Below the pieces are notes generated by a model that had not been told where the DNA came from, did no database searches, and worked only from the letters and a program-made list of their open reading frames with translations. A stretch of DNA of 64,000 nt from an uncultured virus (IMG/VR IMGVR_UViG_3300044643_000328) (lineage: Duplodnaviria; Heunggongvirae; Uroviricota; Caudoviricetes). Of the stretch, positions 5 through 63,973 are shown in pieces. How positions within the stretch are numbered: position 1 is the stretch's first letter; each line of letters opens with the position of its first letter. Made by a program: the position numbers and the translations under genes. The stretch covers positions 1 to 64,000 of the IMG/VR virus record IMGVR_UViG_3300044643_000328, one strand, 5' to 3'.

Positions 5-379
5 GTGTCTGGTTTATTAGAGCTTGTTGTAAAGAGTAAAACTAACCCTTTAGATATGCTTACCTACCCTCAGGTGGGACCTCAATCAATAAAGATTAAC
101 TTCTCTAAAGAAGAGAACAAATATAGATTTAATCAGTTCTGGGATATAACTAAGAACCGTGGTGAGTTTACAGCTAACAACGTTCCAATGTTTGTTACAA
201 AACCTAACGGTTATCAGTTTGACATTAATGCTCAATATGTTGATTATCAGAAGCCAGCGTTACAGCATAAAAAGTTTAGACATCAATCTAATAAAGTATT
301 TTTACGTAAATTAAAGAGTAATGATGTTAAACTACTATTTAAAATATCTAACTTAAAACTTTTACAATCACCTAGGTAA
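5..379 (+). CDS. C-terminal part of a probable tail/stabilisation (tail hub) virion protein, truncated by the window edge
   Basis: The ORF is open from the window edge and lies directly upstream of the cargo-protein block, as in crAss-like gene order. Its stop overlaps the next ATG (TAATG). The function is inferred from position only. Confidence 0.4.
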   Translation: MSGLLELVVKSKTNPLDMLTYPQVGPQSIKINFSKEENKYRFNQFWDITKNRGEFTANNVPMFVTKPNGYQFDINAQYVDYQKPALQHKKFRHQSNKVFLRKLKSNDVKLLFKISNLKLLQSPR

Positions 380-14814: not shown

Positions 14815-17800
14815 ATGGCTGGTAAACTCCAATACGGTCCTAACGATTATAGATTTAATCAGAAACCTTTATCAGGGGCTCCTATATTAGGGGAAGCTCC
14901 TGGTGTTGAGTCTCTTCCTACACTAGATCCTATAGATAGTGGGGCAAGTGATGCTTGGTATCAAGCAGAACAAAGGATTAAAGGTACAAGTAAAAGAATT
15001 AATCCGTTCCATGGAACAGCTGCTACTAGAACTGATTTTATTCCTGAAGAACTTAGTCGTAAATATAAAGATCTACCTTATGGATATATTCCAGGGATAG
15101 ATAATGATGACTTCTATAGTGATACAGATGGATTTTGGAAAACACTAGGTAAAGGTGCTTTAAGAATTCCAACTTTAGTTACTACTAAGTTAGGTCAATC
15201 TTTAGGCTTCTTAGGATCTATTCCTTACGAGGGTATATCTGCTATATATAAAGATGGAGATCAAAACGTTATTGCCAATGCTGCAGATAATGCTTTTAGT
15301 AATTACTTTAAAGACTTAGAAGAAACTGTTAAAACAGACTGGCTTCCTACATATAACTCTGCTGCAGATAGAAATAAAGGATTCTTTGGTAGAATGTTTA
15401 CCGATATGGATTTTTGGGCAGATGATGTGGTAGATGGTGCTGCTTTTATGGCAGCAGCTTGGATTCCTGGTATTGCTCTTAATAAAATAGGAGCAGGTAA
15501 GGGAATAGTAGGAGCAACAAGTAAAGTTTTTGGTAAACCTTTAGCTAACCCAAGTACTATTGCAAACGTAGAAGCTGTTGGTGCCGGAGTGAATTATTTT
15601 CAGAACGCTCAAAAAATAGCTAGCGGTTTAGATAAGTTTACAGCATGGGGTATAGCTACAGCTTCTGAAGCTATGTTTGAAGCTAGTGGTATTAAAGATA
15701 ATGTTTATAAAAGTTTAACTACAAATCAGTTTGGCCAACCTGTAATCAATCCTTTAACAGGAGACCCTTATACAGAAGATGAAAAGAAACGTATAGCTGG
15801 AAATTCTGCATATAACGGATTCTTTCTGAATGCTGCTCTTTTAGGTGTTACTAACTTATTTGAGCTTCCTTATGTTACCAAACAGTTTGGTAAGGTGAGT
15901 GGAATGGCAACTGGTTTAAGAGGCGGTGCAGCTTTAGGTGAAGACTTAGCTGCTAAGACAGCTACTGGTAAATGGGGTAAGTTTTTAGAAAGCAACTATG
16001 GTGCTATGGCTAAAGGCTTAGGTGCTGGTATATTACGTGAAGGTTTAGTAGAAGAAAATGCTCAGCTTGCTATACAAAGACTTAATGAATTCTATGGAGC
16101 TAACGGTATGTCACTTGATGTACTAGATTATCGTAATTATGGTGAACTTGGAAAACAATTAGGTAGGCAAACTATAGATGCTTTTAAAGGTGATGATCAA
16201 GAAACTGCAATGAACATTGGTCTTGGTGGTCTCTTAGGTGGGGGTATGTCAACATTTGGTCCTGGGGGAAGTATTGCTCAAGCTAAACGTGATAAGATAA
16301 CTACAGATCAAGCTGTAGATATGTATAATCAAACGCAAGCAAACTGGCTTAAGTTTGGTAATATTTATAAAGAAGAGTTAGTTGAAACTCAAGATGAGAA
16401 TGGTAATCCTATAACAGAGAAAAGAATCATTCTTGATGAAGATAGCAAACCTTTAGTAGATGAGGATAAGCTAGCAGGTATATTAAGTTCTGTAAAAGCA
16501 TATGGAGCTAAATTAAATCTTGCTGATGAAGTAGAAGATGGTAATCCTTTCTTAAGAAACTATTTAAGAGACGATGCTTTTAGACAGTTTACACTTGCTC
16601 ATATTAATGCAGGCAATGAAGATACCCTTATGGGTAAACTTGATAGCTTAAGAAATGCTAAACCAGAAGATTTAGCTAAGCTGGGTTTTGTACAAGGTGA
16701 AAATTTTGAAGCTGACATCAATAGATATAAAGGTATTGCTGCAGCTATTATAGCTCAGAATAAAGCTATAAACTCTGATATCATATTTGATAACACTAAA
16801 GAAGATCAAGCTCGTAAAGCAAAACTTACTGAGCTTGCAAGTACTCAGGCAGTCCTAAGAGGTCTGGCTAGTGAAGAGCTTCGTAATTATGAAAATGTTA
16901 AAAGTCAGTTTGTTGACTCAACTAATTCATCTTTGAGTGATGGTCTAGTAGATCAACTTAATGATATTCAGTTTAGAATAGATTCTCAAGAAGAGTATAT
17001 TAAAAACTTAAAAGAAAGTGGTGTAGTAAAACCTGCACAGCTTGCTTTACACGAAGACATTTTAGATGAGTTAAAATCTACTCAAAAAGATCTTCTTAAG
17101 TATAATGAAACAAGTGCTCAAGAACTTAAAAAAGATGACGCTGGATATTACAGTTATGAAAAGAAAGCTCGTAACGAAGCTGCTTTTGTAAATCCAATGA
17201 ATAAAAGAATGAGGATTAAAGGGCAGCTTGAGAATACCATAGCTGCTTTAGGTAGAGAGTGGGGTCTATATGCTGACTTTAAAACTGGTAAAAAGAACTT
17301 TTTAGATTTTATCAATGAACAAGTTGTAGAGCCTGTTAATAAAACTATTGAAGAAAACAATGCTCTTATACCAGATGAGAATCTAGTAGATAATGTTGAC
17401 ATAGACGGAATGGATGCTGGTCCAGCTCAAAACATTGAGCTTGGTAAACCTTCTTTAGACTCATTTCTTAGAGATAGACATGCTGATATGCAGGCTAAAG
17501 GTACAGTGTCTGTAGATTTTAACACTTGGTTAAATAGTGCAGGTGCTAATAATTTGATTAAATACTATAATCAAAAATATGGTACTACAGAACCTTTAGT
17601 AGAAAAGCCTCAAGTAGAAGAAGAGATTGAGCCTGAATTAGTTACAGAAGATCAAGCTGATGAAGTTCCTCAAGATGTGATGAATGAAGCATTAGACATT
17701 GAAACAGAAGATGAACTACCAGAAGGTGAACTAGGTACTACAGCATTATCATCTGTAAAGCTTGGACCTTATGTTGTAAACCTTGGGGATGAGATTAACG

Positions 17801-20073
17801 GTGAAGAGGTTACATCTATTACAGATAAAATTATACAGCTTGGAAATAACATCTTATCTTATGATGAGGTGAGATCTAAACTTGATGCTTTTAAAGGTAG
17901 AAACATTAAGCGTAAAGGTGAGACTGCTCCTGTAGAATCTGATACATTAGAGAATGGTGAGATAAAAGACGTTGTTGATTCTAAAGCAGATACTATTACA
18001 CAGAACAAGAATGTACAAAATCTTTTAAATAAAGATTCAGAAGGTGTACTTTATGGAGGTAGTGACAAAGTTATAGATGGTGGTTCTAAAGTTAATAATA
18101 CAAGTGAACTTTACATAACAGACTACGGTACTGCAAACAAACGCGTTGACAGAAAGCGTGTTGGTGCTAACCCTAACTACCCAATGGTTTTAGGTACATC
18201 TACAATTGGTGTAGGTACTAACCTATCTTTAACTGTAGATCTTGAAATTGAAGACTTTAAAGACCCTAACCGTGAAGATAGTAAGACTAGAAAAGCTAGT
18301 GACTTCTTTGAAGGTAGTAAAATAAAAGAGTCTGCTATGGATGACTTCCCTATCCGTATAGAAGCAGAGATTAATGATCAACCTGTATTATTAGGGTACT
18401 ATCCCACTGTAAAATGGTTGGAAGAAAGATGGCCTGATGGTACAACTAAAAACGTTGTAGAGTTTATCACAACTCCTGATGGTCAGTCAATCAATAACTT
18501 AGCAGCTCAGGTAGAAATAGTTAAAAATTTGAGGAAGGAAATCTTTGAAGGTCATAATTTTAATAGTAACTTTGGAGTAACAGCTATTGTAAATGGTAAG
18601 TCTAACGGTAAACTTAGACTTAACGAAGACGGTAGTTTTAATAAATTATCAAAAGTGTTACATCCATCTACAAAGCTTGGTATCATACGTAACGGTATGG
18701 TTCATTTAGGTAATGACGTAGTAGCTGAGAATGTAATTACAGATCCTTCTATATATAACAATCGTGAAGGTAGACCTGTAGCTTTAATAACTACCCCTAC
18801 AGGTAAGTCAATTGTTAGTTTACTAACTGTTCCTAAATTAGCCCCGACACATCAAGAGCTTATTGTATCTGCTTGGAGTGCTTTTCATGCTGTAAAGAAT
18901 ACAGCAGATCCTGCTTCTCTTAAAGATCAAGTGGCTATTGTTAAAGCTATTTACGATACCTTTGATACACCTTTTGAACCTGGAACGATTGTAGACTTTA
19001 ACGTACTTAGAAACTACATTAATGACTATGTAACGTTTACAAGTTCAAAGCAGTACAATCCATTGTTAAAACCAGGAACTAGCCAGTTAAATATAACTGA
19101 AGCTGGTGAACTTATAGCATGGTCTGTAAAAGATAAATCAAAGGATAAAGATGTAGTTATAGCTAAGAATCCAGCTGAATTTGCTAAGAAACAAGATCAA
19201 ATGCGTGAGAAGCTATCTGATCTTTACTATAATGCAAAGACAACTACTGAGTTCTCACAAGGAATCAACTCTGAGTCTCCTATGACTTTCTTAAGTGTGG
19301 TGGGTGGCAAACTTGTTAAGAGCCCTCAACCAATTACTTATAACGAGTATATGATGAATATATTAGAAACAAATATAGAAAAAGGAAGACCTGTAGATTC
19401 TAAAGATCCTAACAGTCCTTTTGTGCATTTTTCTAATCCTGTGGTAACATTTGATGTTGTAGATAATAACTTACAATCCTTAGAGGCATTACAAGAAGAA
19501 CCTTCTATCCCAGCAGTTCCTGTAGAAGATAATAGACCTATTGAATATGGTGAGGTGTTTGTTACTGGAACCATATTAGGTCAAGGTGATGTATACGGAA
19601 ATGTTCCTAAGTATTATCCTGATAGAAGAGGTGATAACGAGTATAACGCTGGAACTAAAAAATACTTTAAAGAAGAAGTTATACAAGATAAGAAGATATT
19701 TACGTTAGTAGATGCATCAATAGTTGATACTGCTAATAGAAAGGGCTTTGTTGCTACTAGTATATTAGTAGATAAAAACTCTCCTACAACATTAAATGAC
19801 GTTAAAGCTGATTTAGAAGCTATACATGCAAGAACAATGTCTGGTGTAGAGAGTGATCGTAAAGTAAATAAAGCAAAAGTTACACAAGCATTAACTGGTG
19901 TAAGGTGGGCATCTCGTAAAGAAACTCCAGCTGTTAAAGCAGAAGAGCTTCTTGATCTCTCATTAGACTTTGGTGATGTAGCTGAAGACATTGGTAATAT
20001 AGATGATATGATTGAACCAGATATGAAATCTATAAAGACCTCATTAAAAGAACTGAAAAAATCTTGTGATTAA
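14815..20073 (+). CDS. Giant ejected protein preceding the virion RNAP, with N-terminal membrane-like segments
   Basis: 1752 aa. Gly/Ala-rich hydrophobic segments in the N-terminal ~480 aa, followed by acidic linkers. First of three giant genes, matching the crAss-like RNAP triplet. Its only Cys is the penultimate residue. Confidence 0.6.
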   Translation: MAGKLQYGPNDYRFNQKPLSGAPILGEAPGVESLPTLDPIDSGASDAWYQAEQRIKGTSKRINPFHGTAATRTDFIPEELSRKYKDLPYGYIPGIDNDDFYSDTDGFWKTLGKGALRIPTLVTTKLGQSLGFLGSIPYEGISAIYKDGDQNVIANAADNAFSNYFKDLEETVKTDWLPTYNSAADRNKGFFGRMFTDMDFWADDVVDGAAFMAAAWIPGIALNKIGAGKGIVGATSKVFGKPLANPSTIANVEAVGAGVNYFQNAQKIASGLDKFTAWGIATASEAMFEASGIKDNVYKSLTTNQFGQPVINPLTGDPYTEDEKKRIAGNSAYNGFFLNAALLGVTNLFELPYVTKQFGKVSGMATGLRGGAALGEDLAAKTATGKWGKFLESNYGAMAKGLGAGILREGLVEENAQLAIQRLNEFYGANGMSLDVLDYRNYGELGKQLGRQTIDAFKGDDQETAMNIGLGGLLGGGMSTFGPGGSIAQAKRDKITTDQAVDMYNQTQANWLKFGNIYKEELVETQDENGNPITEKRIILDEDSKPLVDEDKLAGILSSVKAYGAKLNLADEVEDGNPFLRNYLRDDAFRQFTLAHINAGNEDTLMGKLDSLRNAKPEDLAKLGFVQGENFEADINRYKGIAAAIIAQNKAINSDIIFDNTKEDQARKAKLTELASTQAVLRGLASEELRNYENVKSQFVDSTNSSLSDGLVDQLNDIQFRIDSQEEYIKNLKESGVVKPAQLALHEDILDELKSTQKDLLKYNETSAQELKKDDAGYYSYEKKARNEAAFVNPMNKRMRIKGQLENTIAALGREWGLYADFKTGKKNFLDFINEQVVEPVNKTIEENNALIPDENLVDNVDIDGMDAGPAQNIELGKPSLDSFLRDRHADMQAKGTVSVDFNTWLNSAGANNLIKYYNQKYGTTEPLVEKPQVEEEIEPELVTEDQADEVPQDVMNEALDIETEDELPEGELGTTALSSVKLGPYVVNLGDEINGEEVTSITDKIIQLGNNILSYDEVRSKLDAFKGRNIKRKGETAPVESDTLENGEIKDVVDSKADTITQNKNVQNLLNKDSEGVLYGGSDKVIDGGSKVNNTSELYITDYGTANKRVDRKRVGANPNYPMVLGTSTIGVGTNLSLTVDLEIEDFKDPNREDSKTRKASDFFEGSKIKESAMDDFPIRIEAEINDQPVLLGYYPTVKWLEERWPDGTTKNVVEFITTPDGQSINNLAAQVEIVKNLRKEIFEGHNFNSNFGVTAIVNGKSNGKLRLNEDGSFNKLSKVLHPSTKLGIIRNGMVHLGNDVVAENVITDPSIYNNREGRPVALITTPTGKSIVSLLTVPKLAPTHQELIVSAWSAFHAVKNTADPASLKDQVAIVKAIYDTFDTPFEPGTIVDFNVLRNYINDYVTFTSSKQYNPLLKPGTSQLNITEAGELIAWSVKDKSKDKDVVIAKNPAEFAKKQDQMREKLSDLYYNAKTTTEFSQGINSESPMTFLSVVGGKLVKSPQPITYNEYMMNILETNIEKGRPVDSKDPNSPFVHFSNPVVTFDVVDNNLQSLEALQEEPSIPAVPVEDNRPIEYGEVFVTGTILGQGDVYGNVPKYYPDRRGDNEYNAGTKKYFKEEVIQDKKIFTLVDASIVDTANRKGFVATSILVDKNSPTTLNDVKADLEAIHARTMSGVESDRKVNKAKVTQALTGVRWASRKETPAVKAEELLDLSLDFGDVAEDIGNIDDMIEPDMKSIKTSLKELKKSCD

Positions 20074-20074
20074 T

Positions 20075-23000
20075 ATGGCTTGTAAGTATATACTTAATGG
20101 TAGAGAGTACACTGAGAAAGAACTCTTAAATTTAGCTAGCTCTGCATCATCTTTGATGTCTGTACGTACACGTACTAATAACGAGATGATTGAGATAATG
20201 AAGAATCAAGCTAGTAATAGATTTGTAAATCTTGATTTGTTTACTCCATATCAAGAGAACAATTACATATCTGCTATTAGTGCTGATGTTATATCACAGA
20301 TCGGTACATTTAAGCCAGGAGAAAAAGTAAAGATTTCTCCGTCTGAAGCTTTTCTTAAAACTAAGGCTCGCTTTGAGAACTCTCTTAAAGTGTATACATA
20401 CTTAGCTGAGAAGCTAGATACACCTGCTAAATTATCACAGGCTAGAAAAACAAAGGAGTACATTAAAAAGTTTCCTCAGTTATTATTGACCCCTACTATA
20501 GATGATCTTCAGTCAATGAAGAGTACTTATGGAAACATCTTAGATAACTTTGAAGGATTTAAAACTAAGGTTAAAGTAAACCTTAAAAAGTTTGGTTTAA
20601 AAGTTGAAGAAGGTTCTAATAAGTTTCAAGAGTTAAAGCTTGATGAAGAATACTACAGAAACATTGTTAATGAGGATGCTAATGTAGAAGAGATAACTGA
20701 AGATGAAAGAGTTATCAACGAATCATATGAAGATGGTAGTGCGTTTAGAGTGAACCCACGTGATACTGCTAGTACCCGTGTTAAATTATTCTTTGCAACT
20801 GTACCTTCTGGTAGAACAGGTGCTTTAGGTTTAAAAGAGTTTGTTACATACGATGATGTAATAGAAAACTTTTTAGAGATTGGTTCTGAACTAGAGAATG
20901 TTAACTATGACAATTTACAAGCTGAGCTTCTTCAGAGGTCTAAGACTAGACCTTATTTGAAGAATGTAGCTTCAATGATTGCTGGTTTACAGAAGGATGG
21001 TAATACCCAACTTCTTAATGAGATATTAACTTTTGCTAACAAGTCTTTCCAAGAACAGATCTTAGTTAAATGGAATCCTGCAGGTAATGCTGGAGTTAAT
21101 GTTGAAATTATTAAGTCAAACCGTAATACGGTAATTCGTCAAATATATAATGATTGGTTAGAGCAACAGAAAGCTTCTGATATTATTACTAATAAAAATG
21201 GAGAGCTCGTTGTTAATACAGAAAAAGCAGCTGAGCTTAAGAAAACTTTAGATGAAGCTGTTGCAGGTAGTCCAGAAGTAAAGAAAGCCTGGGTTAAATC
21301 TTTTATGGCTAGCATCGGTGTAACTTACACTGATGAGATGTTAGACTATTTAGAAGAAGCTGCTAACAATGGAGAGTTCAAAAAGAACAATCTTAACTCT
21401 AACTTTGCACAGTTATTTCTTTCTAATAACTTGTTTAGTATTATTGTAAATAAGTATAACACCGCTCCTACTGGTAAAGCAGAGGTTGGTTATGATGATG
21501 CTAATAACGCATTAAAAGATGAGTTTACTTCTTTTAGCAAGTTAGCTGAAATATACTATCGTCATACTCCAGGTAGATACCACACTGGTTCTACGCGTAA
21601 TGGTGAGAATAAATCTATCTATTCTTATATCGCTCCTAGTTATTTAGAGCGTATGAAGAAGAAACTTAACTACAGTAAAACATTCTTAGAAACAGTTCTT
21701 AAAAGATCATTTGCTAAGAATTCTACAGTATTAAAAAACTATGAGGCTTCTAAGCGTACAGGTGCTAATAATGTAACGCTTGATATTTTCTATGCTGATA
21801 GTTTAAAAAGAGACAAAAAGAACCGTGATGGTGTAGTGCGTAAGAAGCAGTCTGTGAAAGAACAGATGTTTGAAGCTATTATTAAACACCAAAACTCAGG
21901 TCGTAAGACTGGTTACTATAACATTTTTACTCTTTCTGATAAGACTGTTACTCCTGTTTTACATATTGATAAGTATAAACTTAACGATAAAGAACAAAGA
22001 CGTTCTGGTAAAGACTTAATTTTTAAGCAAACTACCGGAGATGTTCGTGATAGTTTTGACTTTGGTGAGACTTTTAAAAATCAGCTTTACAATTTAGTAG
22101 AAGCTGAAGTTAACCGTATTGTAGATTATTCTAAACAACTACAAGCTGGTAATAAGCTTAAGCAAGCTAACTTTGATAAAGCGTTTGAGCTGTTTTATTT
22201 GTTCCCTATACTGAATCAAAGTTCTAAAGACCCTAAGGGTAAGAAGCTTGAAGAGATAAGAAACAGAATGTATGAAGGTAAAACACCTTCTAAAGAAGAC
22301 GTTGATTATATTAAAAACGCTGTAACAGAAAACTTTAAAGATAAGACTCTTAAGTTAATTAAGACCATGACTAAAAATGGTTTGATTAACTATTCTAAAA
22401 GTCCAACTACTGGTGAGTTATTGTTTAACTTTCCGTTCTTTGATTCTTCTTACATGACTCAATCAGAACTTAACGGTCTGAGTGATTTACAAAAAGCTAT
22501 ATATGCTGCAGCTGATTTTGAGTTTAACTATTTAAGAACTCAGGTTACTGCTTTACAGCTTTTAGGTGCTGATCCAGCATTATACTATAAGGAACCTTCT
22601 TCACTTAAAAATGCAAACTTAGCTGATTTAACTCTAGCTCAAAAGACTAGTGTAGTTAGATCTACTATGGATGAATTCTCTAAGCGTGCTGCTATGTTTA
22701 TTGCACCTGGTTCTCAAGGTGTATGGAAGTGGTATGATGCTAAAGGTAATCTTGTAGATAGAAGTTCTTATAAGGCTATTACTATTAATGATGTTAAAAA
22801 AGATACTGAATTATTTAAAGATGTAGAAACTACGGATGCTCAGGAGTTTATCACTCTACAAGAGCATATTGACCGTATGATGAGTGAGGGTAGAATACCT
22901 TTAGATGTATGGCAAAGTATTACAGACCGTCTTGGTAAAAAGAATCAAATTGAAAACTTTCAGCTTTCTGATAGAGAAAAGGCTATGGTGTTACAGCCAG

Positions 23001-26000: not shown

Positions 26001-29000
26001 GAGAAAGATTACTGATAGACACTGCAGAAAATAAGTCTTTAGCTAAGCGTATTAATGAAGCTAAACTTGCTTACCCTGAACTTGAAGAAAACTACTTTAT
26101 TAAGAACTTAGGCTTAAAGCTTAGTACTAAAGATGGTTTACCTAGTCAGGTTTATTATAAAAGTCCATTTGGAGACATAGACGAGATAGAAAACAATAAA
26201 GGTTTCTTAAGTTTAATCTTCTCTGGTAATGATGAGCAGATTCAGATTGCTAAAGATTTAGCATTATATACATACTTGACTGGGGCTAATCAGACTAATA
26301 GTAGTTTTGGTAAGTTCATACCAATTGAGTATTTTATATCTGATGCTGATTTCTTAGCTGGTGTTAAAGGGTTCAAGAAGGATGTATTTAATACAGGACT
26401 TCCACAGTTCTATCGTCAGTTTGTTCAGAACAACCCTGACATGGCTACTCGTTTAACTAAAGAAACTGCTGCAGAGCTAACTAAATTAGGTAACGTAGAA
26501 AAGTTTTCTATTGACACTACTAACGATCTACATTATAGATTATTAGTTAAAACTGGTCCAGCTGACAATACATTAGCTAGAGAAAAGTTTGCTGACTTTA
26601 TTTCATACACAGATCCTCAAAGTAAGCAAGTATACTTATATGAGAGAACTAGTGCTATGAACATAGGTAAGTACGAAAGAATTAATACTTTAGGTACGCG
26701 TAAGGCTGGTTTCTCTGAATACATGATGAACGAGAAACAAGTTCCTTCTGTATTACCTATTAATATGACTGCTGCACAGCTTGCTGAGTATAAAGTAAAA
26801 TATCCTGACGCACCTGGTATTGAAGATAGTATAGATGTAGATAGCTTAGCTGACGGTATGTTAGAAGATGATATCAACTTGGATAATCTTTTAGATCAAG
26901 CTGATATGTTTGACAACATAGATTTAGATGTTATGGCAGCTCGAGAACCTATGGTTCAGCAGCCTAAGCAAGTTGGCAAACCTTCTGAGTATACTAACCA
27001 CTCTGGTGGTGCAATTGGTGCTGACAGTGCATGGGATACTATTGGTAGAGAATTTGGTGTGGTTAATCATAATCATTACTACTTTGGTGCTAAAACACCA
27101 AAGGGTAATGTAGAACTTACAAAAGAGCAGTTAGAAGAAGGTGTAGCTCAGATGCGTAAAGCAGCTGAAGTTCTTGGTAAAAATCCACAGAAAGCTAGCA
27201 CTGTTAACTTACTTGCACGTAACTGGTTCCAAGTTAAGAATTCAGATCAAGTGGTTGCTATAGCACCAATTGATGATAATAAAATGTTTGTAGAAGGTGG
27301 TACTGGTTGGGCTGTAGCTATGGCTCAAGCTAACAATAAAGAAACCCATGTATTCAACCTTAAAGATAATTCATGGTATACATGGAACGGTAAGGAGTTT
27401 GCTGCTTCTGGAGTTCCTGTTCTATCTAAAAACTTTGCTGGTATAGGTAGTAGACAAGATAATGGTAAAATGACTGAGGAGTCTTTACAAGCTATCTTTG
27501 ACGTATATGATAATACCTTTAACTCTGTAAGAACAGAAACTTCTATTGCTGATGTTAGTACACAAATAAACCCTACAGAAGAGATAGTTATCACAGATCC
27601 TACTGATACTCTTAACTTGGATGACATGTTAGGTATGGATATGGATGACACTACTGAGATTAATCTAGAAGAGCTTCAGAATCAACCTGTTGAGTTTGGT
27701 CAAGCACAGACAGACCCTGTAGTAAAAGAGCTTATCCCTAATATGGATGGTGATAATAGCGTTAAGACTGTTTTAAATAACATCTTTAAGACTACTACTA
27801 ATCCATTCTTTAAAGACTTAATTAAGATTTTAGGTCAGTCTGGTAGCATCAAAGACGCTAATGTTATTATAGATAACGAGATGGCCCACCCTGGAACTTA
27901 CGCTCCGGGTATAATTAGAATCAATGCTGAGCTAGCTAAGAAGGATAATCCTAAACAAACAGCTAAAGCTAACTTAGAGACAGTGATTATGCATGAAGTT
28001 ATGCATGCTGCCACTGCAGATATTCTTAAGCGTTTTAGAGAAAATAAAGCTAGTCTTAACAAAAGACAGATTATCTTTGCAACAGGGCTTACAAACATGT
28101 TTAAGGATCTACAAGAAAGAATGATAGATTCTGAAGAGCATGGTCCTAAGCTTACTGAGGTGATTGATAAGTTGTTTGGTAGTAATCAGGATGTAGATCT
28201 TTCTCCTAAAGAGAAGTCTATGTACTATGGTCTTACAAATGTTGATGAGTTTGTAAGTATGATCATGACTGATAGAACCTTCCAACAGTTCATGAACCAA
28301 ACTATGTATAATGAGAATACTAATACAAGTATCCTTGAGAGATTCAAAGAGATGTTAAGAAACTTGGTAGCTTCTCTTGCTGATATTATTGGAGTAAAAA
28401 TTGATAACAAATCAGCTTTATATAATGGTGTAGATACTATTGTAAAGCTTATAACTGAACCGGATATTCAAGATCATTCTGATGAAGAAACTATTAACGG
28501 AGATCCTAATGAAGGTCAGTTAAATATGGATGACATAAACAACCCACAAGATACAACAACACAAGATTTCTATATGTTAAAAACACCAAACGGTTCCTTT
28601 AAAGCAAACGAAGATCAGATAATAGCTATTGATACTGTATCTGAATTCTTAAACAAGCCTACTACTGAGAAGTTAGAAGACAACGTGTTCTTACTGTACG
28701 GACCAGGTGGTACCGGTAAGACTGCTTCTGTAGCAAGTGCTATTAATAAAGCTTTAAGTAATACAGCTGAAAAAGTTAAAGTGGGTTACACTGCTATATC
28801 TCACACTGCTAAAGGTGAGTTAGTTCGTGCAGGTAATGAAGAAGCTGTTACACTTGCTTCATTATTAGGGTCTAGACCTAAGATTAATTCTGCGGGTGAA
28901 GAAACCTTTGACTTAATACCTCTATCAGAATATACTGATGGTGATAAGCCAAAACCTTATCCTCCAATATTTACTGTAGACTGGTTAGTTATTGATGAAG

Positions 29001-30229
29001 CATCAATGATTGGTCAGCGTGAAATAGATGCTATTAAACAACGTCTTAGAGAAAGAAGTGGTGAGTTTGGAGATAGTAAGCTTAAGATTTTGTTTATGGG
29101 TGACTACTCACAGATTCCTCCTATTGGAGTGCGTCCTGATGAAGATGGATTTGCTATTAATCTAATGAAGAATCCATCTAAGAGTATTGGCCTATCTAAA
29201 GTAGAACGTACTAAGAATCAAGATATTACAGATCTTGGTTTTAGATTCCGTAGAGCTGTAGACTATTATAATCAGCAGTTAGAGAAAGGTATGCCTTCTG
29301 CGGCTACAGGCTTAAGAATTGAAAAGATGTTAGATAACACTGTAACTACATCTTCTGAGAATGTACTTTACACCTCAAACATTAAGAAGTTCTATACAGA
29401 CTATGTAAATATTTTTAAACAAGATCCGTTTAACTCTCAGAATGCTGTGATGATTGCTTACAATAATGAAAAGCATATTAACACTGTTACTATTAATAAC
29501 ATCTTAAGAACTAATTTATTTGGTGCTAAAGCTGAAGAGGGTTATTTTGTAGATGGAGAACCTATATTCTTAGGGTCTACAATCAACGCTAAAACAGAAA
29601 ACGGTAAAGCTATTGAGATGCCTAAGAATAGTAGAGTTGTTATCAAGTCTATTAAAAGTGTTGTTAAAACATATAACCTAGGTACTAATAGAAAAAGTGA
29701 TTTAATCAACGTACCTGTTTATGCTATAACTGCACATTACGGTAAACAGGTTGTTAGCTTTGATGCCTTTGATAAAAAGTTTGTTGAGCAGTTTATACCT
29801 TCTAGATATGATAGTCAAAGGAAAGGATATATTTTAGAAGATGGATCATTCTTACCTTACTTTAAATATATGAGATTGAAAGACAGTGGAATAACTGATG
29901 TTTTCCATGGATATATAATGTCAGCTCATAAAGTTCAAGGTCAGACTTATAATCATCCTTTTGTACATGATAAGAACATAGCACAACATGTGCGTCCGAG
30001 CATGCAATCAGGAGAAATGATTCTTACTCCTAAGTCTTATGCTCAGATACTTTATACTGCTGTATCACGTGCTAGAAATAAGGTGTACGTACTTACAAAT
30101 ACTGTAGCTAATGAAACAGGTGCTTTTGTACAGCCAACTTTTGAGAACCCAATGAAGTCAGTAGGTACACAAGTAACTGCTGCTGAGTTTCCTACTGAAC
30201 TAGAATTAGAAAATCAATGTAAATTATAA
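20075..30229 (+). CDS. Virion-packaged DNA-dependent RNA polymerase (crAss-like two-barrel RNAP) fused to SLOG-like, zincin and SF1B (Dda/RecD-like) helicase domains
   Basis: RIPNQGHSSM...GSDFDVDK (DFDVD at 24140-24154); HSGGAIGADSAW...GGTGWAV...FAGIGSR (~26990-27520); HEVMH (27992-28006); GPGGTGKT (28700-28723), DEASMI, GDYSQIPP, HKVQGQTY, YTAVSRAR. The ATG at 20075 (MACKY) is preferred over the GTG at 20066. Confidence 0.88.
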   Translation: MACKYILNGREYTEKELLNLASSASSLMSVRTRTNNEMIEIMKNQASNRFVNLDLFTPYQENNYISAISADVISQIGTFKPGEKVKISPSEAFLKTKARFENSLKVYTYLAEKLDTPAKLSQARKTKEYIKKFPQLLLTPTIDDLQSMKSTYGNILDNFEGFKTKVKVNLKKFGLKVEEGSNKFQELKLDEEYYRNIVNEDANVEEITEDERVINESYEDGSAFRVNPRDTASTRVKLFFATVPSGRTGALGLKEFVTYDDVIENFLEIGSELENVNYDNLQAELLQRSKTRPYLKNVASMIAGLQKDGNTQLLNEILTFANKSFQEQILVKWNPAGNAGVNVEIIKSNRNTVIRQIYNDWLEQQKASDIITNKNGELVVNTEKAAELKKTLDEAVAGSPEVKKAWVKSFMASIGVTYTDEMLDYLEEAANNGEFKKNNLNSNFAQLFLSNNLFSIIVNKYNTAPTGKAEVGYDDANNALKDEFTSFSKLAEIYYRHTPGRYHTGSTRNGENKSIYSYIAPSYLERMKKKLNYSKTFLETVLKRSFAKNSTVLKNYEASKRTGANNVTLDIFYADSLKRDKKNRDGVVRKKQSVKEQMFEAIIKHQNSGRKTGYYNIFTLSDKTVTPVLHIDKYKLNDKEQRRSGKDLIFKQTTGDVRDSFDFGETFKNQLYNLVEAEVNRIVDYSKQLQAGNKLKQANFDKAFELFYLFPILNQSSKDPKGKKLEEIRNRMYEGKTPSKEDVDYIKNAVTENFKDKTLKLIKTMTKNGLINYSKSPTTGELLFNFPFFDSSYMTQSELNGLSDLQKAIYAAADFEFNYLRTQVTALQLLGADPALYYKEPSSLKNANLADLTLAQKTSVVRSTMDEFSKRAAMFIAPGSQGVWKWYDAKGNLVDRSSYKAITINDVKKDTELFKDVETTDAQEFITLQEHIDRMMSEGRIPLDVWQSITDRLGKKNQIENFQLSDREKAMVLQPAKPVHTNSVENGNGFNRIDYVKSSTYPLIPDITRGTQLDDLRKFMESNNIRSANFKTAKKTGQPEKVLTVFDENENFITPSNADLAAGVQTLGREGLHTQQEIPLQKDEISNISQANRVLFDGLLTVQDFILENTSFTGQQLKDLKENIRINLFDKAKNDLVRRFGIEERGSGVVFKNKKALEQLLREEALERNFSINDIAAIKLDKDGDLIIPPYLMARGEKFEGLINSLVTKIVRLKNPGTSLVQVSGVASKLKLNELNKDTKNDIIWLPNYDATKGLQYMRKTKEGVKPAQVLVSQFIRDEEGNLIDLSKFVTEDKKTGIKTLDTSSFSEELFQLVASRIPNQGHSSMLPIEVVGFLPSYMENTIVVPDGITKQMGSDFDVDKLFAYTSSLRLRYSKETENKVIALEKEMLNIKNKSEAENTELYKNYLSKQELATIKQLKEDKNEIVNKLKWNISDKEKARKQKSIDSINTLIESVYENIREKYADEYLKIRQVQEKNKQATRKELDDLRNQIVEAKSKGIVGADKVKYDISKYDEKQGWESLSSLNEDELHQMYRDLHWSVLTHRSAFDKITKSIDFNDIKEEADMLEAMGLFKSDITYSPMGFEEQVQIFNDNKSGKLGTGIFASLGSFLADNQDKSIVLGHIDPKSQKIVLDPVVVLDENGEKLELSNITAPGSTGDTKANTRTKGDNNSMTLSESLDNSKNKNLYKFNWSEETMGALSALIALSDQNGKILRINFATRFFKQPIIEDFVSEIQSARDTLSDYTPDVKDAVMNKVSKRYFDMMSQQAQDKMIEDTKNGEYKEEVFGPGNLKEMLQDSLGEPADMDSYAKKQIDALMLFDRLSTIGSELSGVIGASYVYTKGVGSSVFDVIDGIRKLGRLNKSAVFLGLNNLAGKVDVQVDNGRYSIEEPIGEIGHSIDRSLLFAEKLYRELYPVHFSSFYNTVSEKIFNGLNVDKNTVGSSRFIKLNKEIIKGVRSYLFTNSTLNISDNAAQERERLLIDTAENKSLAKRINEAKLAYPELEENYFIKNLGLKLSTKDGLPSQVYYKSPFGDIDEIENNKGFLSLIFSGNDEQIQIAKDLALYTYLTGANQTNSSFGKFIPIEYFISDADFLAGVKGFKKDVFNTGLPQFYRQFVQNNPDMATRLTKETAAELTKLGNVEKFSIDTTNDLHYRLLVKTGPADNTLAREKFADFISYTDPQSKQVYLYERTSAMNIGKYERINTLGTRKAGFSEYMMNEKQVPSVLPINMTAAQLAEYKVKYPDAPGIEDSIDVDSLADGMLEDDINLDNLLDQADMFDNIDLDVMAAREPMVQQPKQVGKPSEYTNHSGGAIGADSAWDTIGREFGVVNHNHYYFGAKTPKGNVELTKEQLEEGVAQMRKAAEVLGKNPQKASTVNLLARNWFQVKNSDQVVAIAPIDDNKMFVEGGTGWAVAMAQANNKETHVFNLKDNSWYTWNGKEFAASGVPVLSKNFAGIGSRQDNGKMTEESLQAIFDVYDNTFNSVRTETSIADVSTQINPTEEIVITDPTDTLNLDDMLGMDMDDTTEINLEELQNQPVEFGQAQTDPVVKELIPNMDGDNSVKTVLNNIFKTTTNPFFKDLIKILGQSGSIKDANVIIDNEMAHPGTYAPGIIRINAELAKKDNPKQTAKANLETVIMHEVMHAATADILKRFRENKASLNKRQIIFATGLTNMFKDLQERMIDSEEHGPKLTEVIDKLFGSNQDVDLSPKEKSMYYGLTNVDEFVSMIMTDRTFQQFMNQTMYNENTNTSILERFKEMLRNLVASLADIIGVKIDNKSALYNGVDTIVKLITEPDIQDHSDEETINGDPNEGQLNMDDINNPQDTTTQDFYMLKTPNGSFKANEDQIIAIDTVSEFLNKPTTEKLEDNVFLLYGPGGTGKTASVASAINKALSNTAEKVKVGYTAISHTAKGELVRAGNEEAVTLASLLGSRPKINSAGEETFDLIPLSEYTDGDKPKPYPPIFTVDWLVIDEASMIGQREIDAIKQRLRERSGEFGDSKLKILFMGDYSQIPPIGVRPDEDGFAINLMKNPSKSIGLSKVERTKNQDITDLGFRFRRAVDYYNQQLEKGMPSAATGLRIEKMLDNTVTTSSENVLYTSNIKKFYTDYVNIFKQDPFNSQNAVMIAYNNEKHINTVTINNILRTNLFGAKAEEGYFVDGEPIFLGSTINAKTENGKAIEMPKNSRVVIKSIKSVVKTYNLGTNRKSDLINVPVYAITAHYGKQVVSFDAFDKKFVEQFIPSRYDSQRKGYILEDGSFLPYFKYMRLKDSGITDVFHGYIMSAHKVQGQTYNHPFVHDKNIAQHVRPSMQSGEMILTPKSYAQILYTAVSRARNKVYVLTNTVANETGAFVQPTFENPMKSVGTQVTAAEFPTELELENQCKL

Positions 30230-30231
30230 CT

Positions 30232-33200
30232 ATGGCTTGTCTTGTAAAAAGATCACAAAATGCAATTGATAGTGTATACTTACCAGGTGGTGAAGTAAAA
30301 TCTACAGCTTACTATAATATACTTAGTGAGGTAATGAAAGGCGTACCTAGTGATGTAATTCTAAATGTAAAACAATCTTTAGAGGGTTATGTAGGTAAGT
30401 TTATTAAAAACTCTACAGATCCTAGTGAGGTGGCCCTTGGTTTATATGCTAACTTGTATTCTAAAGATTTTAAATCTTGGTATGGTAATGACTGGACAAC
30501 CACTGGTGAAGAACCAAAGGTTGTAACAGTTGATGGTATGAAAGTATTTAAGAATGCTAAAGGAGAGATTAGAAGCATTTATAACACGGGTAGTCAGAAA
30601 CAAAGTAAAGCTGATTACTATAGATCAGTAGCCACTAGAAAAACTAGTGATCTTACTGACTATGTAAGAAAGACTATACAGGTTTTAAACTTACGTATTA
30701 AAGAAGCAAGACAGCTTAGAGATAAGGTTAACAATAACCCTAAGCTTTCCTTTGAAGAAAAGACTAAGCAAGCTAAGCGTTTTAATGACGTTATAGCTGA
30801 CTCTATAGAAAAGAAGACCCAGTTAAAAGAAAAGAATGAGCTTGAGTATTTATACTTGACAGCTGAAACTGATCTTGATATGGCTACAGATGTGCTACGT
30901 AATAGCAGCAGATCTACTATGGGTGATATCCGTATAGCTTACCGTGCGGTAGAAGCTTGGAAGAATATCATTATGATATTAGGAGTTAAAAACTTATCAG
31001 AGTTATCTAATGATGATGCTAAGCGTATCTCTGCTATAGAAGCAAGAAGTATTAATCTTAGTCGTGAGCTTACAGATATCTCTGTAAAACTTATTGCTAA
31101 GACTTTCTCTAGTGAAAACAAAGAGATCAAGCCTGATGACTTATACAATCATCTGAAAGGTCTAGAGGATGTAAACTGGATCAGCTCTCAAACTAGAGAC
31201 ATTAGTACAACAGGTATACCTATTGTTAGTCTATTGGCTAAAATAATTCAAGAAGCCAACCTTAAGATTGATAAAGAGCATAATAAAAACTATCAAAGGA
31301 TTGATGATGCTTATAACAAGATTAAAGGTAATACTGAAATTAAAGCTAACGGCTTTAATATTTTCTTTAAAGAACAGTCTAAAAAGATTGGTGATAATAT
31401 AATTAAGACTTTAGGTTTAGTTGGTCGTTACTCTCAGAGCTATTATGATACTATGAGAGCTAAGCGTAAAGTGTTAAACAACACTTTAGAAGCTGCCGGT
31501 AACGATAACGTTAAAAAGAAAGAGGCATACGATCAGTATAACACTTGGGTAGCTAAGAATACAATCTTATTTAATGCTGTACCTTTTTTACAGATGGATA
31601 AATATACTGATGATCAAAGAGTCAGTGTAGTTAATGATTTGTTAGCTCAAGGGTTTACTCGTGATGAGATTGCTGATATCGTTAAAGAATCAGAAAGATT
31701 ATATAATAAGTTCTTAGATCAGAAGAAGCGTTACGCTATTGATCTAGAAGTAGATTATGAAAATAATAAATTAGCTGTACCAGATGGTCAGACTAAAGAA
31801 CAATATATTAATAGTCTTGTAGAGAAGTGGGATAATGACCACAACCCTATTAAGTTTATTGATCAAATGATGCAGCCAAAGCTTATAGCAAACTATGCTT
31901 ATAAGGGTATGTATTATACTATTAAGATACCACGTAAAACGGTAGATAATAAGGATAGCGGATACTACGATCAGAACTTTACTCGTATTGCTGCTAATAA
32001 AGACTTGTATGAATTCTATACATTCTTTAGAGATTTTATAAAAGAAAACTTATCTTATCTTCCTGAAGAGGAGATTGATGACTTACAGTCTAACTTCTTA
32101 CCTGTTATTACAGAAAAGATTGCTCAAGAGTATGGGCTTACTAATTTAAAAGAAGCCACTAAAGGTCTTGGTGATTGGTTTATGAATACGTTTACGTCTA
32201 TAGACTACCAGCGTAGAGAAACAGTAGATCCAGTTACTGGTAAAAAAGTTTACAACTTACAGCCTAAGTTCATTAATGAAGAGGTTGCTGTAGAAGATCG
32301 TTCTAAGGACATGGTTGTGATGATGAAAATGTTTGGTGATATGGGTCTTGTATACAAGCATAAGCTGCAGGTGCAAGATTACGTTGATGCTATGAATGAA
32401 ATCATTCAGAACACTGGTAAGACAATGAGTGTAAACAACTTTGGTGAAGTTAAAGTTGAAACTGTAGCTCCTAAGAATACTCAGGCTATGGTTGAGTCTG
32501 AAATTAAAAGAAGTTTTTACGGGGCTCCTGTAGAAGAGTCTATGGTGTACCAAGGTAGAAAGTTCTATAATGCTAAAGAGCTTATAACGTTAGGTACTCA
32601 CAAGTCTGAAAAGTATAGAAAAGCTCAAGAGCTTGAAAATAAGATTAAAGATTTAAATAAGGAATTAGAAAAAGATTCTTTAACTGATATAGAAAGGGTT
32701 AATATTGAGAAAGAAATTAACAAGCTTAAGTCAGAGCATTCTAACTTAGGTGGTAGATTGTTTAGTCTTACCAAAACTCTTGACAGTAATATCAAGTATT
32801 CAAGACTTGTTGCGTTAGCTTTCCAACCCTTTTCTGCTCTACGTAACCTTTTGATTGGTGGTGTTAATAATGTTATTCATGCTACCGGTGCTAGAGATTT
32901 TAACTCTGCTGAGTTAAGAACAGCTACTGCAATGATTAAAGGTTCTATAACTAAGTTCTGGACTAAAGGTAATGTGGTTTCTGAAGATGCTGCTAAGCTC
33001 CTTAAGTTTATGTTAGATACAGGAACTGTAGAAGGTGAAGACGGTTTATACAGGGCTAATATAATTAATAAAAAGACTACTGCTGATAAGATACTAGAGA
33101 AGCTACCTAATGCATTCACTTTAATGAAAGGTACTGACTTTTTATTTAAATCTCAGACTGCTTTAGCCATGGCTTTAAATACTAAGATTGTCACTGAAAA

Positions 33201-34044
33201 AGGTGAGGTGTCTTTGTATAAAGCTTTAACTGATAACTTAGAATTTAACGAAGAGTTATATGGTAAGTATAATCCTGAATTAAATGGTGGGTTAGAGTTT
33301 GAAGACCTTTATGATAAGTTTATGTTAAAGACAGGTCAAGTAGCTAAAAGACTACACGGCTTGGCTACTAACAGAACAGGTATAATGGGTAAGGATAACG
33401 TTATGGGTAGACTACTGTTCTTATTTAAGACTTGGCTTCCTGAAACTGTAGCTAACCGTTATGAGTCTAGAAAGTATGATGAGTTTCTAGAAAGAGATGT
33501 AGAAGGTTATTTTAGAACTTTAGGTAGATTGGCTTTTGTAGAAGAAGGTGTTCCTTATGCTTTTAAAGCAATGCTTAGAGCTACGTTCTCAGATAACACT
33601 GATGATCTTGATGATTTAGAAAAAGAAAACTTACGTAAAGCTTTTAGTGAGTTAGTAGCTATTATAAGTATTACAAGCATATACCTTGCAATCAAAGGTT
33701 TAGCTCCAGATGAAGATGATGAGGAAAGAAAGAAATGGAATATGGTTATAAACCAGATGGAGTTATTAAAAAGAGACTTAACGTTTTATATTGACACTGA
33801 CTCTTTAGGTGATCTTACAACTCAGATGGTTCCTTCTATTACATCTTTAAATAACTTAAAGACTGCACTGTGGGCTGCGTTGTATCATTACCCTGCCGGT
33901 ATTACTGGCTTAGAAACTAATGATGATGGGGAACCTCTATATGATGGTGAACGTACTATTTTAAAAGTAACTAAAGCAATACCTGGATTGAATAACATTA
34001 ACAGAATGATATACTATCAGAAGAAGTTATCAGATGCTAGATAG
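30232..34044 (+). CDS. Giant ejected protein following the RNAP (third of the triplet)
   Basis: 1270 aa, helical, with a C-terminal GRLLFLFKTWLP...EGYFRT segment and a hydrophobic helix, as in crAss-like post-RNAP proteins. Starts MAC, which holds its only Cys. Confidence 0.6.
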   Translation: MACLVKRSQNAIDSVYLPGGEVKSTAYYNILSEVMKGVPSDVILNVKQSLEGYVGKFIKNSTDPSEVALGLYANLYSKDFKSWYGNDWTTTGEEPKVVTVDGMKVFKNAKGEIRSIYNTGSQKQSKADYYRSVATRKTSDLTDYVRKTIQVLNLRIKEARQLRDKVNNNPKLSFEEKTKQAKRFNDVIADSIEKKTQLKEKNELEYLYLTAETDLDMATDVLRNSSRSTMGDIRIAYRAVEAWKNIIMILGVKNLSELSNDDAKRISAIEARSINLSRELTDISVKLIAKTFSSENKEIKPDDLYNHLKGLEDVNWISSQTRDISTTGIPIVSLLAKIIQEANLKIDKEHNKNYQRIDDAYNKIKGNTEIKANGFNIFFKEQSKKIGDNIIKTLGLVGRYSQSYYDTMRAKRKVLNNTLEAAGNDNVKKKEAYDQYNTWVAKNTILFNAVPFLQMDKYTDDQRVSVVNDLLAQGFTRDEIADIVKESERLYNKFLDQKKRYAIDLEVDYENNKLAVPDGQTKEQYINSLVEKWDNDHNPIKFIDQMMQPKLIANYAYKGMYYTIKIPRKTVDNKDSGYYDQNFTRIAANKDLYEFYTFFRDFIKENLSYLPEEEIDDLQSNFLPVITEKIAQEYGLTNLKEATKGLGDWFMNTFTSIDYQRRETVDPVTGKKVYNLQPKFINEEVAVEDRSKDMVVMMKMFGDMGLVYKHKLQVQDYVDAMNEIIQNTGKTMSVNNFGEVKVETVAPKNTQAMVESEIKRSFYGAPVEESMVYQGRKFYNAKELITLGTHKSEKYRKAQELENKIKDLNKELEKDSLTDIERVNIEKEINKLKSEHSNLGGRLFSLTKTLDSNIKYSRLVALAFQPFSALRNLLIGGVNNVIHATGARDFNSAELRTATAMIKGSITKFWTKGNVVSEDAAKLLKFMLDTGTVEGEDGLYRANIINKKTTADKILEKLPNAFTLMKGTDFLFKSQTALAMALNTKIVTEKGEVSLYKALTDNLEFNEELYGKYNPELNGGLEFEDLYDKFMLKTGQVAKRLHGLATNRTGIMGKDNVMGRLLFLFKTWLPETVANRYESRKYDEFLERDVEGYFRTLGRLAFVEEGVPYAFKAMLRATFSDNTDDLDDLEKENLRKAFSELVAIISITSIYLAIKGLAPDEDDEERKKWNMVINQMELLKRDLTFYIDTDSLGDLTTQMVPSITSLNNLKTALWAALYHYPAGITGLETNDDGEPLYDGERTILKVTKAIPGLNNINRMIYYQKKLSDAR

Positions 34045-34047
34045 AAT

Positions 34048-34080
34048 AAAAAAAAGAGAGGAACTAATCCTCTCTTTTTT
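34048..34080. terminator. Bidirectional intrinsic terminator between convergent gene blocks
   Basis: aaaaaagagagga-actaa-tcctctctttttt is a perfect inverted repeat with A/T tails on both sides. Confidence 0.8.
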
Positions 34081-34263: not shown

Positions 34264-34686
34264 CTATGAATGGGGGTGCTTGCCTATGTAGCAATCTTCT
34301 GGCCAACCCATGTGTTTTTTAAATCCATTTATCAAGCTATGGATATTGCTAGCACCTACAGGGTTGTGACTGTGAACAGAACAGCCCTTTAAAGGTACGT
34401 TTTTTTCTTGACAATATTCTACTAACCATTTAGCACAATCTAAACCAGTCTTCTCAGTGTATTCATGATAGTTTGGATGCTGGTACCCCAACGCTAGTTT
34501 CTGTTTAAAATAATCGTCTATATGCTCTTCGGCTAAGTCATGATCAAATGATATAAGATCAGGAATACCGTGAGTGTTAATCCACTCTGTAAACTGTGCG
34601 TAGTTTCTAACTACAAACCAAGGCTCGTACCCTGGAATAGTTTCTGTAGGAGTACGCAGGTCATCTAAGTATAGTGCTTTTTTCAT
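34264..34686 (-). CDS. Cyclic-phosphate-processing receiver-like domain protein
   Basis: Motif pattern LYLDDLR...ISFDHDL...TGLDCAKWL...VHSHNPVG. Confidence 0.75.
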   Translation of the reverse strand: MKKALYLDDLRTPTETIPGYEPWFVVRNYAQFTEWINTHGIPDLISFDHDLAEEHIDDYFKQKLALGYQHPNYHEYTEKTGLDCAKWLVEYCQEKNVPLKGCSVHSHNPVGASNIHSLINGFKKHMGWPEDCYIGKHPHS

Positions 34687-63543: not shown

Positions 63544-63568
63544 GTTATGTTGTTTTGTAGGTTGATTA

Positions 63569-63973
63569 CTATAAGTTTGCAAATGCTGAGAGTTCTTCTG
63601 AGTTTTCTGGTACGTTTGTGAAACTATCTCCATCATTTGCAGGTACTGCCTCGCTGATATTGGATCTATTATCAGTTCTTCCTGATACTTGTTCCAAAGT
63701 CTCAGTAAAAGATGGTTTTCCAACGGTACTGGTGGTTTCTCTAAGGGTAGCATTTGATTTGTTATTAGTTATTACAAAAACTCTTGCAATTGTATCTACG
63801 TTCTGTAATTCAGGATGTTTCTGAATAACTTTAATATGCATATCTAATGCATTATATTTCTCTTGGATGGAGCCGTAGCCCAAGTCATCCTTTTTATACC
63901 AAGTGTAACCACTGTGTAATAAATCTATAATGTCTTGTACATCAATAGATACTTCTTCTTTTTGAATAGCCAT
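63569..63973 (-). CDS. Hypothetical protein
   Basis: Start placed at MAIQKEE; shares an identical leader with the MoxR gene. Confidence 0.55.
   Translation of the reverse strand: MAIQKEEVSIDVQDIIDLLHSGYTWYKKDDLGYGSIQEKYNALDMHIKVIQKHPELQNVDTIARVFVITNNKSNATLRETTSTVGKPSFTETLEQVSGRTDNRSNISEAVPANDGDSFTNVPENSEELSAFANL

Follow-up and report, generated by a model that had tools for sequence, protein, structure and literature searches.

Paired terminal cysteines at the gene junctions of a crAss-like phage cargo module

Background

Why should three giant proteins, encoded side by side, hold only four cysteines (Cys), all at termini that face one another? The question is raised by a stretch of 64,000 nucleotides (nt), termed here the window, that comprises positions 1 to 64,000 of IMGVR_UViG_3300044643_000328, a 74-kb IMG/VR virus record from an uncultured member of the Caudoviricetes. 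The window carries the cargo ("transcription") module of a crAss-like phage to which the named relatives are only distant, in the form of three genes that we term A, B and C. A module identical to A/B/C is also present on a 129.8-kb contig. The crAss-like phages are the most abundant viruses of the human gut.

An initial annotation of the sequence had proposed that disulfides, or metal bridges, join the three products into one ordered thread. Our analysis of relatives finds that Cys pairs are present wherever the module genes are split and are dropped where they are fused. The reading that we favor, and hold to be probable rather than firm, is that cognate docking tails are locked by inter-protein disulfides into a head-to-tail chain A-B-C. 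The features on which the argument draws are these:

12359..14806, plus strand: upstream open reading frame (ORF) of 815 amino acids (aa), Cys-free; outside the proposed chain, its junction with A serving as a control
14815..20073, plus strand: protein A, 1752 aa, first module member; single Cys at 1751
19942..20070, plus strand: C-terminal tail of A, about residues 1710-1752 (ending PDLKSIKTSLKELKKSCD); Cys codon TGT at 20065-20067
20075..30229, plus strand: protein B, 3384 aa, virion RNA polymerase with further domains; Cys at 3 and 3382
20075..20176, plus strand: N-terminal module of B, family F1 (beginning MACKYILNGREYTEKELL); Cys codon at 20081-20083
24140..24157, plus strand: catalytic motif DFDVDK of B (B1356-1361), two-barrel RNA polymerase; invariant in alignment A1
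30143..30226, plus strand: C-terminal tail of B (ending ELELENQCKL); Cys codon at 30218-30220
30232..34044, plus strand: protein C, 1270 aa, last module member; Cys3 only, C-terminus without Cys
30232..30333, plus strand: N-terminal module of C, family F3 (beginning MACLVKRSQ); Cys codon at 30238-30240

The three genes are adjacent on the plus strand, with tight junctions (TAA-T-ATG and TAA-CT-ATG), and the genes of B and C both start with ATGGCTTGT. The start of B was taken as the ATG at 20075, giving 3384 aa; a longer ORF, 20066-30229, begins at GTG.

Results and discussion

Four cysteines at facing termini

The combined 6,406 residues of A, B and C include just four Cys, and every inner terminus has one of them. 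The sole Cys of A is residue 1751 of 1752 (position -2, counted from the C-terminus), in the ending LKKSCD. B has only two, at residue 3 (MACKY) and at residue 3382 of 3384 (-3, in the ending ENQCKL), and the sole Cys of C is residue 3 (MACLV). This recount agrees with the initial annotation, in that there is no additional internal Cys and the 815-aa protein has none. The 1099-aa ORF preceding the 815-aa ORF has four internal Cys. Cys frequency is 0.06% in A+B+C, compared with 0.56% window-wide (113 of 20,125 residues in 46 non-overlapping ORFs), and genes on the replication side of the window mostly have 1-3%.

If four Cys were placed at random, the probability that one falls within six residues of each of the four inner termini would be about 4! 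x (6/6406)^4, or ~2e-11, a figure that is post hoc arithmetic. Chance is rejected. The real test of the pattern is conservation, and the pattern is conserved.

All 19 homologues of C (40-100% identity) carry Cys3 in the motif M[AP]C[LQ][VI]KR, and just one of them has an extra Cys, a single one. Each of 28 homologues of A has exactly one Cys, always within the last 15 residues and at -1 or -2 in 24 of them; alignment A2 shows no variation at C1751 of A. In B, C3 and C3382 do not vary across 24 sequences, down to 32% identity. This retention, on which the initial annotation had staked its proposal, extends to the model phages considered below.

A wider search found 222 homologues of B, and architectures were counted for the 120 that were listed. 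B stands alone in 68 of these, with Cys at both ends in 60. Four of the eight deviants (P0062, P0066, P0094 and P0096) have far longer close relatives and are possibly fragments. The more distant homologues are gene fusions. An A-profile hidden Markov model (HMM) gave no match on fused proteins, and A+B fusions were recognized by BLAST and by how far they extend at the N-terminus; all 14 have a C-terminal Cys only. Among 13 B+C fusions, nine have an N-terminal Cys only and four have Cys at neither end.

A crude rule labeled a further 21 proteins A+B+C; terminal Cys is absent from 14 of them and present at the N-terminus of the other seven. In these seven, other B domains lie ahead of the polymerase, and they are probably rearranged B+C proteins that the rule mislabeled. 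One of them, P0134 (5,053 aa), equals the protein at locus L021 in length, termini and Cys positions, and the A-like product encoded upstream at L021 ends in NPFRKC.

Identity of the three proteins

Residues 568-1377 of B match residues 623-1396 of the phi14:2 gp66 crystal structure (6vr4_A; E 1.1e-21), and B matches phrog_16227 (E 6e-49). D1356, F1357, D1358, V1359, D1360 and K1361 are invariant in the 24 relatives of alignment A1. B thus has both sequence hallmarks of a phi14:2 gp66-type two-barrel polymerase, similarity to gp66 and the DFDxD motif. Further parts of B are a DprA-like region (2305-2438), a conserved HExxH (2640-2644) and a Dda/RecD-like helicase (~2839-3346). Residues 2305-3346 correspond to window positions 26987-30112, with the invariant HExxH at 27992-28006; in relatives, the order of these three parts differs or they are placed ahead of the polymerase. 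Neither A nor C has a match in Pfam or PHROG, and C has none in PDB. The C-terminal part of C resembles crAss001 gp49.

Just past the stop codon of C, at the switch in gene strand, positions 34045-34080 hold an A-run, a G+C-rich inverted repeat (GAGAGGA...TCCTCTC) and a T-run. To the eye, this element looks like a bidirectional terminator.

Cysteine pairs at module junctions of relatives

A profile built from 24 B sequences was used to collect 79 IMG/VR loci with 10-kb flanks, from the best 80 of 412 relatives. The analysis covered 78 loci and excluded L001-L004, which stand for the same phage, the genome record of the window itself and crAss001. ORFs were called by ourselves with table 11, and only plus-strand ORFs of at least 450 aa were taken as chain members. 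Where the ORF immediately upstream of B was unlabeled and measured 1200 aa or more, it was treated as A-like. Terminal Cys was scored in the last 15 residues on the upstream side of a junction and in the first 8 on the downstream side.

Cys is present on both sides of 80 of the 86 junctions between module genes, on the downstream side only at four, and on neither side at two. The other junctions of the same loci served as controls, and 104 of 108 have no Cys; three of the four that do are module junctions with an unlabeled A (L042, L061 and L063). Junctions between an 815-aa-like protein and A also lack Cys in relatives. The enrichment at termini and the pairing of N- and C-termini by gene order that the initial annotation expected of relatives are thus strongly borne out, and its interpretation as a whole is supported in part. 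Redundancy among the loci was reduced by clustering the polymerase core at 60% identity (59 clusters). With one representative of each, 53 junctions have Cys on both sides, three on one and two on none.

The outer ends of the module behave differently from the inner ones. None of 66 outer C-termini has a Cys, and five of 67 outer N-termini do, with A truncated or unlabeled in all five. Among background ORFs, N-terminal Cys occurs in 15 of 191 and C-terminal Cys in 32 of 191. Module proteins have 265 Cys in 433,833 residues (0.061%), 170 of them terminal, against a background of 0.67%.

The module takes the form of one, two or four genes in other lineages. Its architectures are separate A, B and C; A followed by B+C; A+B followed by C; A+B_N followed by B_C and C; and single genes of 5,005-7,315 aa. 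The complete single-gene forms at L016, L020, L034 and L076 have 1, 0, 0 and 0 Cys. In the form with A+B_N, found at 12 loci, the split lies within the polymerase at ~B1150 and has a Cys pair of its own, an upstream ending [EN]FKKC[DE] being followed by a downstream start MAC[EQ]YFVNG. Cys therefore tracks the gene break and not a particular domain. Further split sites, at L018 and L061, also have their own pairs. The codons for terminal Cys are TGT in 125 cases and TGC in 25, and the spacing of partner genes runs from an 8-nt overlap (-8) to 505 nt or more.

A ferritin-like gene of 124-163 aa sits exactly in the ~B1150 split, within a gap of 480-505 nt (for example, L058 13120-13593). It is found at L043, L054, L056, L057, L058, L062, L064, L070, L077, L078 and L026. 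The two copies tested match PF00210 (E 2.8e-12 and 2.3e-10), and the products have no consistent terminal Cys.

In L018, L025, L042, L061, L074 and L079, a set that includes most of the loci breaking the pairing rule, the gene for the N-terminal-Cys protein is immediately preceded by another conserved gene, of 345-406 aa (584 aa in L025). The N-terminus of its product has the consensus E(G)ELIL.N..GD.AI.P, and two copies tested had no Pfam match. Its coordinates are as follows:

L018: 21171-22259
L042: 8046-9230
L061: 7632-8852
L074: 15746-16783
L079: 16493-17686

L018 and L025 were considered as a clean pair of split and fused forms. The junction region has been replaced and not simply cut, and the comparison is uninformative.

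Terminal modules and tails

Split sites have two elements in common: a short Cys-bearing tail at the C-terminus of the upstream product and, at the N-terminus of the downstream product, a conserved module of ~30 residues with Cys at position 3-6. In A, the tail is conserved after a stretch of ~160 residues without consensus (~1547 to 1710). The downstream N-termini fall into four families that are conserved over ~30 residues and not at the Cys alone:

F1: MxC.Y..NG..[YW][ST]E..[LF]K
F2: M..CPN..S.EWK.LV...GE
F3: MAC[LQY][IV]K[RK]
F4: M.C[YS].SWNG..S.LA

The families are not tied to one protein body. F1 is found on B bodies (13) and C bodies (7), and F2 on B (5), B+C (2) and C (16). HMMs of the first 34 residues match at N-termini only (26 for F1, then 29, 5 and 10), and searches of module proteins, fusions included, gave no significant internal copy (best internal E 0.27). 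The N-modules are portable, modular elements.

Modules conserved over ~30 residues might instead dock non-covalently, with the Cys reserved for a third partner (the portal, the capsid interior or a DNA end) or, given the invariant HExxH of B, for a cysteine-switch that keeps the zincin domain of the module inactive. A third partner fails to explain both the Cys-free outer C-termini (0/66) and the gain of Cys on both sides of new splits, and a cysteine-switch would set four Cys against one zincin motif. We consider this alternative quite unlikely. A predicted complex of A[1683-1752] with B[1-120], made with no alignments, received a score close to zero and a low mark, which counts neither for nor against the docking that we favor.

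Named crAss-like phages

In crAss001, the A-like gp47 has a single Cys at -3, gp50 has Cys at 5, 1334 and -9, and gp49 has a single Cys at 5. The gene for gp47 is on the strand opposite to those for gp50 and gp49 and is not adjacent to gp50. Because both Cys codons are used and gp47 is encoded on the opposite strand, the Cys residue itself is under selection. Cys positions in other named phages are listed here:

phi14:2: g067 (-1), g066 (3, -2), g065 (3)
FpV4: gp32 (-2), gp33 (3, 1461)
p-crAssphage: gp45 (1396, 1425, -2), gp44 (3 plus seven internal)
crAss002: gp32 (-2)
cr8_1: 19918 (..., -2), 19917 (5, ...)
cr110_1: gp39 (..., -2)

The rule is seen across Steigviridae and Intestiviridae, in Flavobacterium phages and in many uncultured lineages. 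In crAss002 gp33 and cr110_1 gp40, the start codon as annotated precedes an internal MSC by 32 and 14 codons, respectively (L086 14869 and L088 14770). This MSC is probably the true start of both proteins, and the annotated starts are probably mis-set. An M-x-C start is useful for placing start codons.

A/B/C share the terminal Cys pattern of phi14:2 g067-g066-g065 and of crAss001 gp47/gp50/gp49. Unlike the polymerases of those phages, B carries the extra DprA-like, HExxH and Dda/RecD-like helicase parts. Virion packaging and ejection of this type of polymerase are known for phi14:2 and crAss001 only. The phi14:2 module proteins were found in virions by mass spectrometry (annotation notes of NC_021806). 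For crAss001, the portion of Bayfield et al. available to us (PMC10172136) reports virion mass spectrometry in which gp45, gp46, gp47, gp49 and gp50 are cargo, with reduced and non-reduced samples run. It describes inter-subunit disulfides in the gp57 dimer (47-47) and in tail hub and ring proteins, and that portion makes no mention of cargo disulfides.

According to the Drobysheva preprint, some phages encode the three proteins as one fused polyprotein, "likely cleaved". The words "cysteine" and "disulfide" are absent from that preprint and from a 2023 review, and "cysteine" is absent from Yutin 2021. We found no description of the Cys rule in the crAss literature within a search that did not extend to most subscription papers and bioRxiv supplements.

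Cyanophage A4 and N4-like phages

The same signature, an extreme C-terminal Cys, an extreme N-terminal Cys in the product of the next gene and few others, is shared with gp27 and gp26 of the cyanopodophage A4 (Anabaena phage A-4L). In the A-4L record, gp27 (1717 aa) has Cys only at 1715, gp26 (1114 aa) has Cys only at 5, and the genes are adjacent. According to the available part of the A4 cryo-EM paper (PMC12002296; PNAS 2025), the C-terminal helix of gp27 lies in a cleft of gp26 and is "further stabilized" by a Cys1715-Cys5 disulfide, and the linked proteins are folded within the pre-ejectosome. Searches of A-4L gp27 and gp26 against A, B and C detected no similarity (best BLAST E 0.13; best HMM E 0.01, with a score near zero). 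A4 also differs in having one link, not two or more, in having no RNA polymerase in the chain, and in belonging to the Saffermanviridae. That part of the A4 paper describes no rule tied to gene fission or fusion (PMC12002296).

These structures bear on the statement of the initial annotation that the proteins are ejected unfolded. "Unfolded" was too firm a word, given that partial unfolding of cargo is what Bayfield et al. infer for crAss001 (PMC10172136, in the portion available) and that the linked A4 proteins are folded before ejection (PMC12002296, likewise).

N4-like phages (Schitoviridae; N4 gp50-52, DEV gp71-73) also eject a giant virion RNA polymerase with partners, and there Cys is suppressed as in A/B/C. 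In the available part of the report on these phages (PMC11445570), gp71/gp50 homologues have 0.00075% Cys, compared with 0.865% in the proteome, which is explained by passage through the periplasm. Depletion of internal Cys in ejection proteins is therefore already known (PMC11445570). The N4-like ejection proteins have no terminal Cys at all, whereas A/B/C hold four that are conserved; A/B/C thus do not share the complete absence of Cys that marks the Schitoviridae, and internal depletion is common to both. The N4-like polymerase is annotated differently from the phi14:2 gp66 type.

Known depletion of this kind, together with the tight junctions of the window and the shared ATGGCTTGT start, could suggest that terminal Cys is a by-product, reflecting either a nucleotide signal for translational coupling or neutral Cys at the floppy ends of proteins that cross the periplasm. 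We rejected the nucleotide-signal form of this idea, which is contradicted by the strand and non-adjacent position of crAss001 gp47, the use of both Cys codons, gaps of -8 to 505 nt and beyond, and the junction counts. Neutrality is excluded by invariance down to ~25% identity taken with absence from outer termini, and N4-like proteins have no terminal Cys. A by-product is scarcely credible.

A proposed disulfide chain

The positions of the Cys, their conservation, their restriction to split junctions and the modular N-termini are results of the present analysis. That the tails dock, that a disulfide forms, when it would be oxidized and what it would do are inferred. The upstream C-terminal tail would dock on the N-terminal module of the next protein, and the two terminal thiols would be joined by a disulfide between the proteins. 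Linked in this way in the virion, the split products would amount to one covalent head-to-tail chain, A-S-S-B-S-S-C, equivalent to the polyprotein that is fused elsewhere. Its likely uses would be equal stoichiometry at packaging, a stable assembly before ejection, and ordered exit. Reduction in the host cytoplasm would undo the links.

Several points weigh against such a chain. With a reducing host cytoplasm and many anaerobic hosts, the time and place of oxidation are problematic. A scan of window proteins, covering 64 kb of the ~130-kb genome, found no thioredoxin, Erv or Dsb among seven large plus-strand ORFs and 38 other window proteins. No link chemistry is observed, and no crAss cargo structure or mass-spectrometry result shows a link. 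The C-terminal Cys has no fixed place and is found between -1 and -15.

The pairing rule is also broken at six of 86 module junctions. At L018, L025, L074 and L079, the partners are separated by an intervening gene, and no Cys at the upstream terminus pairs with the N-terminal Cys of the downstream product; in L074 and L079 there is instead a CxC ~25 residues before the upstream C-terminus. The Cys-less "split" at L026 is a single in-frame TAG (9809-9811) in a gene that is continuous in relatives; a nonsense change, a sequencing error and a recoded stop are all possible readings of this TAG. Among unique junctions, the tail type goes with the downstream module family (F1 with a basic-Cys tail, 18/20; F3 with xQC, 5/5; F4 with NPFxxC, 4/4; F2 mixed), an association that speaks for the chain but is no more than suggestive, being confounded by shared descent.

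A related difficulty concerns the reason for internal depletion. The initial annotation was right that internal Cys is depleted, and it gave avoidance of mis-pairing as the cause. This cause need not hold. N4-like proteins are Cys-free without having terminal Cys to mis-pair (PMC11445570, available part), and B+C proteins of Intestiviridae keep the junction pair while holding 7-15 Cys in total, nearly all internal. Because of these Intestiviridae proteins, avoidance of mis-pairing is not universal, and they too weigh against the chain.

The pairing rule is silent on chemistry. A junction pair might act through a shared metal ion or another thiol chemistry, such as a thioester or a Lys-Cys bridge, a choice that would sidestep oxidation in a reducing cell; in its favor, an acidic or amide residue often follows the C-terminal Cys (KKC[DEN]). 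There is one Cys per side, with no conserved His/Cys/Asp/Glu set around it across families, and the sole solved analogue, A4, is a disulfide in the part of that work available. We judge such links unlikely. Homotypic disulfides (A-A through C-termini, C-C through N-termini, and chains or rings of B) have a precedent in the 47-47 disulfide of the crAss001 gp57 homodimer (PMC10172136, available portion). They leave unexplained the asymmetry of inner and outer termini, the gain of Cys at both new ends and the association of tail with module, and the A4 link is heterotypic (PMC12002296, available part), which together make them very unlikely.

If the heterotypic disulfide chain is correct, the early transcription machinery would be delivered as one covalent chain of ~0.7 MDa that is cut loose by the reducing cytoplasm. 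The chain would explain the stoichiometry and exit order of giant cargo, as well as the free splitting and fusing of the module in evolution, and it would add a redox step to infection.

Docking domains of polyketide and non-ribosomal peptide synthases offer a working analogy only. There, short C- and N-terminal elements order giant proteins and can be moved between them; these domains are non-covalent and are unrelated in sequence and biology. By a possible but doubtful extension, the terminal elements of the phage module might be a portable "coupling code", such that a cognate N-module and C-tail, each with its Cys, would hitch any protein covalently into the ejected train, and the drop in redox potential on entry would uncouple the train and activate the polymerase. 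Were this true, a giant cargo polyprotein could be cut anywhere, and cargo, enzymes included, could be shuffled or added, with one ordered thread still delivered.

Other features of the window

The plus-strand gene at 379-5877 encodes a protein of 1832 aa with no family match. It has eight Cys in two clusters of four (935, 938, 953 and 965; 1471, 1474, 1490 and 1493) and is otherwise Cys-free. In sequence, the clusters look like two metal-binding knuckles. Residues 586-709 of the 815-aa protein have a weak match, below cut-off, to the coronavirus NSP15 EndoU endoribonuclease (E 7.9e-4; 19.8 bits, with a cut-off of 23.9). On the replication side, two minus-strand genes have matches:

34264-34686, minus strand: protein with a cREC_REC "cyclic-phosphate processing receiver" domain (E 2.6e-21)
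62413-63753, minus strand: MoxR-type AAA ATPase (bpMoxR; E 3.9e-24)

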